From: Paecilomyces variotii
Taxonomy: Eukaryota
Assembly: GCA_004022145.1 (NCBI GenBank)
Contig: RCNU01000001.1
Length of the DNA stretch: 64,000 nucleotides
Strand: one strand, 5' to 3'
Part shown: positions 36,692 to 39,195 of the stretch, in pieces
How the letters are laid out: each line of letters starts with the position of its first letter
How positions within the stretch are numbered: the stretch's first letter is position 1
Program-made: the position numbers and the translations under genes
Notes under the pieces: generated by a model
What the model was told of the DNA's origin: nothing
Database searches by the model: none
The model's input: the letters and a program-made list of their open reading frames with translations, nothing else

Positions 36692-38676
36692 CTTGTTTGC
36701 GCAGATTGTCGCGGAATCGATCCGGACACCAGAACGAGAGAGAAGGGTTAACCCAGGCGTCCTAAGAGGACAATTGGATGTTTTGAGCAGAGAAAGACTT
36801 CAACCTAGGCAGGTCCGCAGGAAGTGGAAGTTGATTCAGGGCCAAATGGTCATGGCCTGGGCAACAACAACAACCGGAATTCCAATCGTCCACGCTCGCG
36901 GCTTGGGCTAGCAGTCAAGAGAAATGCGGGAAGGTAAGGATACAGGCGATATACCAGAGAAGAAATGAATATGGTGAAGCTGAGCCCAGCGCCGAGATAG
37001 ACAGATGGAAGTCGGAGTAGAAGAGGAAGAAGAAGACTTGAAGGTCGAGATACCCATGACACTTTTTGGCAGCTGCGACGCACGCTAAGTGGCTGTTATG
37101 TTATGATGTCCCGATACGGTAAGCGCGCTGCCGTTGACAGGACAACGGTTGCCGGCCTGAGGCACCAGGGCCCGTCCTGGTCACGGGATTGGCCGTCACC
37201 ATAACAAACAGTCGCAGACCGCCCTCGTTCACAACAAACACATTCCTGAAAGGCTCGTCCATGGCGAGTCAGACGGTGCCATGTCTCTGCTGAGGTGGAT
37301 CGGGCATCAAATCTCCATACCGGGTGACTTCGTCTGAGCTTCAACAGCCACCACCCCAGCTGGTTGACTGGGGCCCCTCGAGCCCACAGGGAGGGGTCCA
37401 GATGGCATGTTGATGATTCTATTGTTGCTTATCCACAGGCGTGATATACAAAGCGCTCGTGATAGCTAGTATCTGGCCCAGCATGGACCAAACTGGGCGA
37501 TTGAACGAGTATGAATTCATCGGCCACGTATGCTCGTCCTTAGATATTCACAAGCAATCCGCCGGTTTTCGAGACAAGTTGGTGACATAGCAAAGGAGCA
37601 TGGGACACATTGTTCATGTGCAGTCCTTGGCTTCTTCCCCCACGGACACGATTTCACTGGGTTTTTGGGATATATTTCCGTGGGTTTGCTCCCCAGATCA
37701 AAGATATGCTCGTTGTGATTCTATGTGACCACGATCTATAGTTATCTACGTGGCCACGATCAGAACCCATCGACATGGATGCACGAACCTATATCGTTTT
37801 CCCGGCTCGAGGCCACCCTGCAAGACATGTAGCGAGTAGTCTAATTCCATCACCAAAAGCACGAGATAAACCTGCAGCGGCGTGTCTGATACATCGCGTT
37901 ATGTGTGAGCTACACGGACAGGTCGTCTACTGAAACGCCAGGTCATCCCGCGGGTGTCAGACAAGAATGCAGCGTGTGGATTTTCTCGAAGCATGCCCTG
38001 TAAAGTTTCGTTCATGGAGCTAGGTGGCGAAGACGGGCTGAGTACCCACGACAATGGAATTCTCCCCATACAATGTACACGCGCGGCTCTACAGTCCAAT
38101 GGTGATCTCGTCCTTGGTTTTCCAGGCCATCTACTGTTTACCATCACTGAGGCAATTGAATTTGTACCCTCCGGGGATGTGTAGTTCATCGTGTGGACAT
38201 CGCGCTTGGCGAACGATAACTTTGGCCATTAGGCCTCGTTATCCGGACTCGCTGTGCAAGGATCCAAGATTAGTATATGATACCCATGCAGCTCGTAGGG
38301 TCATCACTGTACTTTGTTCTTGACGATACTATGCATACTAATATCCTTTGATCTGTTTGCGATGGTGGTAGTACCAACAGTGTATAGACATACATTATCT
38401 CCAGATATATATTTACGGTACACAGCCCTTCAGTCCCTCTCAATTACTTCGAATAAAGACCACCCCTCCACGAACTACATGAAAAGCCAATAGCAATGCT
38501 TAACACACTCAATACTATAGGGACCCTCGCAAATAACAAACTACCCGCTGTCAAACACCAGAAAAGCATACATATTCTCTACCATCTCGAGTAACCACAA
38601 GTACGAACTGTCCGACATACTTAGTTCTGAATCTCTGATTAATAGATTCAAAAGACTCGCCGCTTTAACAAGAACC

Positions 38677-38759
38677 GGTTCTGTAGTGTAGCGGTTATCA
38701 CTCCGGATTCTGATGATCAGAATCTTCCGGCAACCCCGGTTCGATTCCGGGCAGGACCT
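38677..38759 (+). tRNA. tRNA-Gln(CTG) with 11-nt intron
   Basis: Acceptor stem GGTTCTG/CAGGACC, anticodon arm CCGGA-TTCTGA[tgatcagaatc]T-TCCGG, T-loop GGTTCGATTCC. Confidence 0.95.
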
Positions 38760-38766
38760 GAGTGGT

Positions 38767-38820
38767 GGACTCCTTCTGACTCTTAAGATCCCGATTGGGA
38801 TTCGTAGAGGCAGTGAGTTC
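38767..38820 (+). ncRNA. Candidate structured RNA hairpin in the tRNA-Gln 3' trailer
   Basis: Manual fold gives ~19 bp in four stacked helices, lying between the tRNA 3' end and the first oligo-T run (38822). Confidence 0.45.
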
Positions 38821-39110
38821 CTTTTATTTTTGCTCCCTAGAGATGTGTGATGGCTGCGATACATAGGAAGAATTCTAGGTTCTTTGTGGGAGATGTATAA
38901 TTAGACGAAGAGATTTAGGGAAGGGTCTTTTTAAGCCGTTGAATAGCATTTGTTGAACAAATAACCAAATTCGATAACCAATTTCTTTCTTTCTATGTGG
39001 GCAAGGAAGAACTGTGGAGATTCTGGAAAACTTTGACAGGCTATCGAACTCATCACAGATTTACCTTAGCTTGATAAGATGAAGATGCCCCGATCCACAC
39101 CAAGATAACC

Positions 39111-39195
39111 GGTTCTGTAGTGTAGCGGTTATCACTCCGGATTCTGATTGCATCAGGATCTTCCGGCAACCCCGGTTCGATTCCGGGCAGGACCT
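39111..39195 (+). tRNA. tRNA-Gln(CTG) with 13-nt intron
   Basis: Same mature sequence as the 38677 copy; intron ttgcatcaggatc; T6 Pol III terminator at 39198-39203. Confidence 0.96.

Follow-up and report, generated by a model that had tools for sequence, protein, structure and literature searches.

A tRNA-Gln gene of Paecilomyces variotii with a 62-nt hairpin trailer: probably a structured by-product of processing and no more than possibly a small RNA

A tRNA-Gln(CTG) gene in a 64,000-nt stretch of a 30.1-Mb fungal assembly (G000), referred to here as the window, is followed by an unusually long trailer that folds into a hairpin at the Pol III terminator. This raises the question of whether the trailer is a small RNA gene carried behind the tRNA, as the original prediction proposed, or a part of an ordinary tRNA precursor. 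The features of the locus are as follows.

38677-38759, plus strand: tRNA-Gln(CTG) copy 1 (ARAGORN with introns; Rfam RF00005, 52.5 bits, same coordinates)
38684-38694, plus strand: internal Pol III A box of copy 1, taken from the sequence by its consensus
38710-38712, plus strand: anticodon of copy 1, whose discriminator is T38759
38714-38724, plus strand: intron of copy 1, 11 nt, at the canonical 37/38 position (the ARAGORN placement one base later is equivalent)
38738-38748, plus strand: internal Pol III B box (T arm) of copy 1, a pattern match at G000:C1:1836738-1836748
38760-38821, plus strand: 3' trailer of copy 1, 62 nt, single copy in the genome, without an Rfam match
38764-38822, plus strand: predicted trailer hairpin, an imperfect stem of five helices (21 pairs in all) that closes on a GAUU loop (38793-38796) and reaches the T run
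38822-38831, plus strand: Pol III terminator TTTT-A-TTTTT (TTTT at 38822-38825, A, TTTTT at 38827-38831)
39111-39195, plus strand: tRNA-Gln(CTG) copy 2 (ARAGORN with introns), trailer 2 nt
44866-44950, minus strand: tRNA-Gln(CTG) copy 3 (ARAGORN with introns), trailer 4 nt

The exons of the three copies are identical, the introns of copies 2 and 3 are 13 nt long, and all three genes of the genome with these exons sit within 6.3 kb (38677-44950). A fourth, variant tRNA-Gln(CTG) gene on another contig (L116), whose exons vary at several positions, some of them as paired changes in the acceptor and anticodon stems, has a trailer of 2 nt, and the long hairpin trailer is found on one of the four copies. 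Measured from the discriminator, the first run of four T residues (T4) comes after 62, 2 and 4 nt in copies 1, 2 and 3 respectively. This distance and the ARAGORN and Rfam coordinates confirm the claim that copy 1 has no T4 until 38822 and hence a 62-nt trailer, and the other two copies do reach T4 within a few nucleotides, as had been stated. The copy 1 locus is intergenic; the gene it lies upstream of is on the minus strand and encodes a Cdc14-like dual-specificity phosphatase with DSPn and DSPc domains.

The minimum free energy (MFE) structure of the trailer is one unbranched hairpin of -23.6 kcal/mol. Its four main helices (38767-72/38815-20, 38776-78/38811-13, 38780-83/38806-09 and 38787-92/38797-802) are present in both the MFE and the centroid structure with pair probabilities of 0.83-1.0, so that the single hairpin described in the original prediction, with its named helices, its GATT loop and its end at the terminator, is recovered in full; two additional, weaker basal pairs lie at 38764-65/38821-22. 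The stem is interrupted by three internal loops, contains three G-U pairs and has a longest helix of 6 bp. Five of 200 shuffles folded as well as the trailer (z -2.22), 1000 shuffles gave p 0.03-0.04 with z about -2.1, and two of 63 tiles of 64 nt across 37000-41000 had z <= -2.2. The significance of the antisense strand is at least equal (z -3.11), while the sense strand is the more stable (-23.6 versus -20.4 kcal/mol). The fold is genuine, yet for a feature picked post hoc it is above chance only modestly. Within the full precursor the cloverleaf and the trailer hairpin fold separately (0.2 expected cross pairs), so the cloverleaf is left intact. No T4 occurs until far past the usual 0-10 nt, and the trailer stem reaches the T4, a sub-optimal tract, and so lies inside the distance of about 7 nt at which a hairpin can assist a terminator.

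A number of other identities for the trailer were tried and rejected. It matches no known RNA family in Rfam at the gathering score or at E <= 10, and a genome search for a repeat or SINE, of a kind that can miss common words, returned one match, the trailer itself. A plant-type tRNA-snoRNA dicistron was set aside, as the trailer lacks C, H and ACA boxes as well as an Sm site and contains just a lone CTGA. A second, decayed tRNA in tandem was considered in several forms: a tRNA-Gln relic, plausible on inspection, had p 0.16-0.54 under four scoring schemes and 0.02-0.03 under a fifth, with other tRNAs scoring higher; the 11-mer in common with tRNA-Glu(TTC) was equalled by 44 of 500 shuffles; and for any tandem tRNA relic there was neither an ARAGORN or Rfam call nor a B box, the best score versus 76 distinct tRNA bodies having p 0.14-0.25 against shuffles. 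A 119-codon minus-strand frame across the locus has no Pfam match and was not taken as coding. The trailer also contains two splice-like words, CTGAC and GTGAGT, and no splice joint was found in four runs.

Among the 108 tRNA genes called, the copy 1 Gln trailer is the longest (62 nt; runner-up 47 nt). These genes are the second of two sets and were called uniformly by one program in all stretches retrieved, among the matches listed and not as the full tRNA set of the genome; the first set comprised 64 tRNA genes, namely 61 Rfam matches (63 of 977 candidates scored) and the three in the window. The uniform caller missed several genes seen before (among them L006, L063, three in L098 and two in L106), all with trailers of at most 13 nt. 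Trailers of at least 20 nt occur in 23 of the 108, which is no unbiased frequency because the tRNA-Lys family was added for its long-looking trailers. Nine of these 23 fold at p <= 0.05 versus dinucleotide shuffles, compared with none of 23 equal-length controls downstream, behind the terminator, and one of 23 upstream (paired Wilcoxon 8e-6 and 4e-5, respectively). The other eight hairpin trailers follow Thr, Cys, Arg (two), Glu (two), Ala and Pro genes, are without evident common sequence and are all stronger than the Gln trailer (z -2.5 to -4.5 against -2.1). They lie at L013, L040, L042, L044, L048, L052, L055 and L100, are 24-47 nt long and form unrelated hairpins of 7-13 pairs that end 1-5 nt ahead of the T run; those at L048, L055, L100 and L040 are near-perfect palindromes with 3-5-nt loops that occupy most of the trailer. 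The enrichment amounts to eight of 12 in the discovery set versus one of 11 in the held-out set, in which the mean z is -0.72 (Wilcoxon 0.012 and 0.042) and six of the 11 members are tRNA-Lys paralogues. Several long trailers have no hairpin, and a hairpin is therefore not a requirement. Of 17 long trailers with at least five predicted pairs, 15 have a stem that comes to within 7 nt of the T run, a proximity that short trailers nearly force. The first T run is no longer than T4 in eight of the 108 genes, the copy 1 Gln gene among them, and five of the nine hairpin trailers end in T6-T8. A full-text literature search, with most subscription journals and the supplementary small-RNA tables of milRNA papers outside its scope, returned no account of the copy 1 Gln trailer, nor of trailer hairpins being enriched genome-wide in filamentous fungi.

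As a separate observation from the same set, seven dispersed tRNA-Lys(CTT) paralogues (L057 and L126-L131) have trailers of 21-30 nt that begin with a common 12-base motif with one variable position and then diverge, mostly with only a weak stem of 3-5 pairs.

Four of 24 sequencing runs listed were compared over 38300-39500, of which X3 is identical across 38673-39136 and X9, X18 and X20 represent one related lineage. In this lineage the trailer carries one change, C38772A, common to all three runs, and no indel, among the changes listed (in place order, to 38917); an X20 contig across 38738-38820 has 2 differences in total. In X9 the upstream flank has 30 differences in 377 positions and the downstream flank no more than 26 in 289 (8.4% together, plus indels), versus one of 62 in the trailer (one-sided Fisher p 0.034, post hoc), and 34 of 316 upstream 62-nt windows are equally conserved. 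The unpaired bases of the trailer are conserved as well. The trailer is thus conserved at the orthologous tRNA in one close relative and its fold beats shuffled sequence, albeit modestly (z about -2.2, p 0.03-0.04), so the original prediction survives on both of these points, on which it had offered itself to refutation. It had also proposed a search for compensatory changes, and in the single lineage available the one substitution is not compensatory: C38772A disrupts the pair 38772:38815, and the refolded variant reaches -21.2 kcal/mol (z -1.83, p 0.055). Immediately behind the hairpin, the T tract of the related lineage is longer by an insertion. A single lineage at less than 10% distance is insufficient to tell selection from chance. 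A scan for distant orthologues with the exact tRNA pattern gave no loci in viral contigs, two in metagenome contigs and none in GTDB genomes; the two metagenome loci (L064 and L065), which have short trailers, match the window in the tRNA alone and are for this reason uninformative on orthology. Elsewhere in the region compared, only 4 changes are listed in about 165 nt of intergenic sequence at 38300-38465, with many more just downstream, and this segment is possibly a regulatory element of the Cdc14-like gene.

The RNA runs were available as assembled contigs only, which give neither strand nor end nor level. Record 13 of X20, on our reading of its alignment, in which no joint is listed, runs from 38738 to 38766 on one strand and then from 38820 to 38738 on the other. 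It thus folds back at the predicted basal pair 38767:38820, as would be expected if a molecule with its end at the hairpin had primed itself. Given that X20 has a second fold-back at 38406 and cover about 270 nt upstream of the tRNA, its source may nevertheless be DNA or a longer RNA. X18 covers 30 of 30 bins and resembles DNA. The X20 contigs listed contain none with at least 31 letters on each side of the tRNA-trailer junction, and the lack of X20 cover over 38821-39110 carries no evidential weight. Other X20 contigs have A-rich tails directly behind the tRNA 3' end (38759) and behind the 5' exon (39147), as for oligo-adenylated tRNA or splicing intermediates or a tailing library, and these are not assignable to one copy.

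The gene, the 62-nt distance to T4, the predicted hairpin at the T run and the like hairpins behind other tRNA genes are direct observations. Given these, the trailer of copy 1 is probably, though by no means securely, the long structured 3' trailer of an ordinary pre-tRNA, an extreme case among the terminator-proximal trailer hairpins of the genome; a structured by-product of tRNA processing is the most likely reading, and an independent small RNA no more than a possibility. Established Pol III biology suggests that transcription would start from the internal A and B boxes and be read to 38822-38831, and since there is no T4 ahead of 38822 the trailer should belong to the Pol III precursor. 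The hairpin perhaps aids release of Pol III at the weak T4, and it is the sole structure near enough to do so because the tRNA body is 62 nt away. With purified yeast Pol III, a hairpin 0-7 nt ahead of T4 stimulates release and one at a distance of 18 nt has no such effect (Xie et al., bioRxiv 2021.08.27.457903; PMC9278858); the placement of the Gln hairpin is the same, but the yeast templates were engineered, whereas this is a natural, predicted case in which a T5 follows after one base and the relative has a longer tract. In the same assay T6 needs no hairpin (bioRxiv 2021.08.27.457903). Since T6-T8 runs close five of the nine hairpin trailers and the relative has a longer tract, an aid to termination is not demanded, and this step is weakened.

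The stem may also bar 3' exonucleases, in which case RNase Z would be expected to cut after U38759. In Saccharomyces cerevisiae the two pre-tRNAs with stem-loop trailers of 25 and 26 nt, Lys1(IV) and Phe(VII), are those dependent on tRNase Z (Skowronek et al. 2014, PMC3866640). They are likewise single gene copies among their isoacceptors with an unusually long stem-loop trailer, although the trailer here is 62 nt, and tRNase Z processing was shown in yeast and is a prediction for copy 1 in a genome with one tRNase Z gene. On this reading the trailer belongs with the structured long pre-tRNA trailers of the kind known from yeast. The released hairpin would measure about 62 nt plus oligo-U and begin with G, and its default fate would be 5'-3' exonuclease decay; in human cells and plants, trailers freed by RNase Z are abundant, short-lived and barred from Argonaute by XRN2 (PMC10191329). 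The tRF-1 class described there likewise has an RNase Z 5' end and a Pol III oligo-U 3' end, but the members listed in that work are 14-25 nt long, against the predicted, largely double-stranded 62-66 nt or so of the Gln trailer. Any constraint would then act on structure and precursor handling and not on the product RNA. Against reading the trailer as part of an ordinary precursor stand the weak held-out set, the conserved unpaired bases and the outlier length, the trailer being much longer than a terminator hairpin needs. By a count made by eye, one of 37 published terminator regions of A. niger (tRNA-His2) has more than 20 nt ahead of the first T4 (PMC6108506).

It is possible, but unlikely, that the locus is a tRNA-ncRNA dicistron in which RNase Z releases a stable hairpin RNA of about 62 nt with a role of its own. 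Such an RNA would be bound by La through its 3' oligo-U, and its 5'-3' decay would be slower on account of the near-terminal stem. The nearest known dicistron in size and layout is tRNA-Trp-RUF70 of Yarrowia lipolytica (Acker et al. 2008, PMC2566860), likewise an ascomycete, in which a structured, promoterless sequence of about 60-70 nt spans from the tRNA 3' end to the T tract. The rank of the Gln trailer as the longest of 108, its single substitution and lack of listed indels over 62 nt where the flanks show about 8% and indels, its imperfect stem with three G-U pairs, unlike a fresh palindrome, and the X20 contig 38738-38820 that folds back at 38767:38820 all agree with such an RNA. However, RUF70 lies behind all 13 copies of tRNA-Trp, covaries by compensatory changes and gives a stable northern band (PMC2566860), whereas the Gln trailer is a single-copy element on one of four copies and shows no covariation in the one related lineage compared. 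Furthermore, the sole substitution removes or displaces a pair (-21.2 kcal/mol, z -1.83, p 0.055), equal conservation is reached in 34 of 316 upstream windows, there is neither an Rfam family nor a C box, H box, ACA or Sm site, and the fold-back at 38406 with the upstream cover leaves DNA or a longer RNA as a possible source of the X20 contigs. Of the small RNA freed by RNase Z that the original prediction put forward, a need for cleavage is plausible from the yeast precedent and the tRNase Z gene; a functional product is unsupported because like hairpins occur in at least eight unrelated trailers, one of four Gln copies carries it, the change in the relative is not compensatory and the stem is broken. 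An improbable variant is a milRNA precursor of the TMER or milR-4 type, with a 5' end that would come from RNase Z, a stem that a Dicer-like enzyme would cut and an arm of 19-25 nt that would be loaded on Argonaute. Predicted milRNA precursors of Penicillium measure 43-89 nt (PMC4425646), a range that includes the length of the trailer; the hairpin passes a loose set of rules (PMC9757828: no side stems, at most 20 unpaired bases), and the genome has two Dicer-dimerisation matches and three full Piwi matches besides its one tRNase Z. These points are offset by a longest helix of 6 bp and a best 21-nt window that pairs 15 (5' arm) or 16 (3' arm) positions, and by the RNase Z end at G38760, whereas fungal milRNAs prefer a 5' U (PMC4425646); a product of the 3' arm could begin with U. 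In addition, all 34 of the P. chrysogenum milRNA precursors in PMC4425646 lie outside tRNA genes, and A. fumigatus is described as having few milRNA-like RNAs, its tRNA-derived RNAs being mostly Dicer-independent (PMC12871901). The precedent invoked for this locus, milR-4 of Neurospora (Yang et al. 2013, PMC3547838), holds in that it too is a Pol III transcript with a tRNA leader and an RNase Z 5' end (predicted for the Gln trailer). It fails in architecture: milR-4, which is abundant and Argonaute-bound, is flanked by two tRNA-Ala genes, the second of which precedes its star strand, as opposed to one tRNA and one self-contained bulged hairpin here. The two small-RNA versions jointly, stable RNA or milRNA, retain a real but minority share of the probability.

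It is also conceivable, though less so than a stable RNA, that the hairpin has no function: an inverted duplication by template switching would have lengthened the trailer, the hairpin would be its decaying trace and the low divergence would be due to chance. The same mutational route would yield the near-perfect short-loop palindromes of other long trailers, and template switching is a described origin of new hairpins (PMC10710096). The z of only about -2.1 for a post hoc pick, the equally significant antisense fold (z -3.11), the palindromes themselves (L048, L055, L100 and L040) and the existence of hairpin-less long trailers are all in keeping with this. It is less easily reconciled with conservation in excess of the flanks (p about 0.03), with arms that are still in register despite many mismatches, and with the greater stability of the sense strand, which uses G-U pairs.

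Taking the copy 1 trailer as the structured trailer of an ordinary precursor, the single locus is of minor importance, and what is more useful is that distal Pol III terminators in this mould are enriched for adjoining hairpins of unrelated sequence. The trailer hairpins of this genome form a natural data set on the disputed role of RNA structure in Pol III termination, and Eurotiales genomes offer a cheap comparative test of them. A more speculative proposal, which we consider unlikely, is that in Paecilomyces RNase Z releases the 62-nt hairpin as a stable small RNA, and that the graded series of trailer hairpins, from short perfect palindromes to the long, bulged, conserved Gln hairpin, records the birth of tRNA-linked small RNA genes such as RUF70 and the tRNA-milRNAs. 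Inverted duplication would lengthen a trailer, which would be kept as a terminator or processing hairpin and then co-opted.

Further features were seen in the window beyond the locus. At 43924-44244 (plus strand), between tRNA-Gln copies 2 and 3, is a gene with a Pcc1 (KEOPS subunit) domain, and a U2 snRNA gene lies at 50425-50617 on the minus strand (Rfam, 163.6 bits). A glutathione peroxidase frame at 46015-46566 has 96% identity to a Paecilomyces variotii protein and 68-82% to those of other Eurotiomycetes. Two frames at 42031-43012 (plus strand) are perhaps exons of one secreted protein with a signal-like hydrophobic start; they have no Pfam match and contain 37-residue repeats ending in Lys-Arg-Asp (111-bp period, 2.2 copies), which presumably resemble those of a Kex2-processed repeat peptide precursor.
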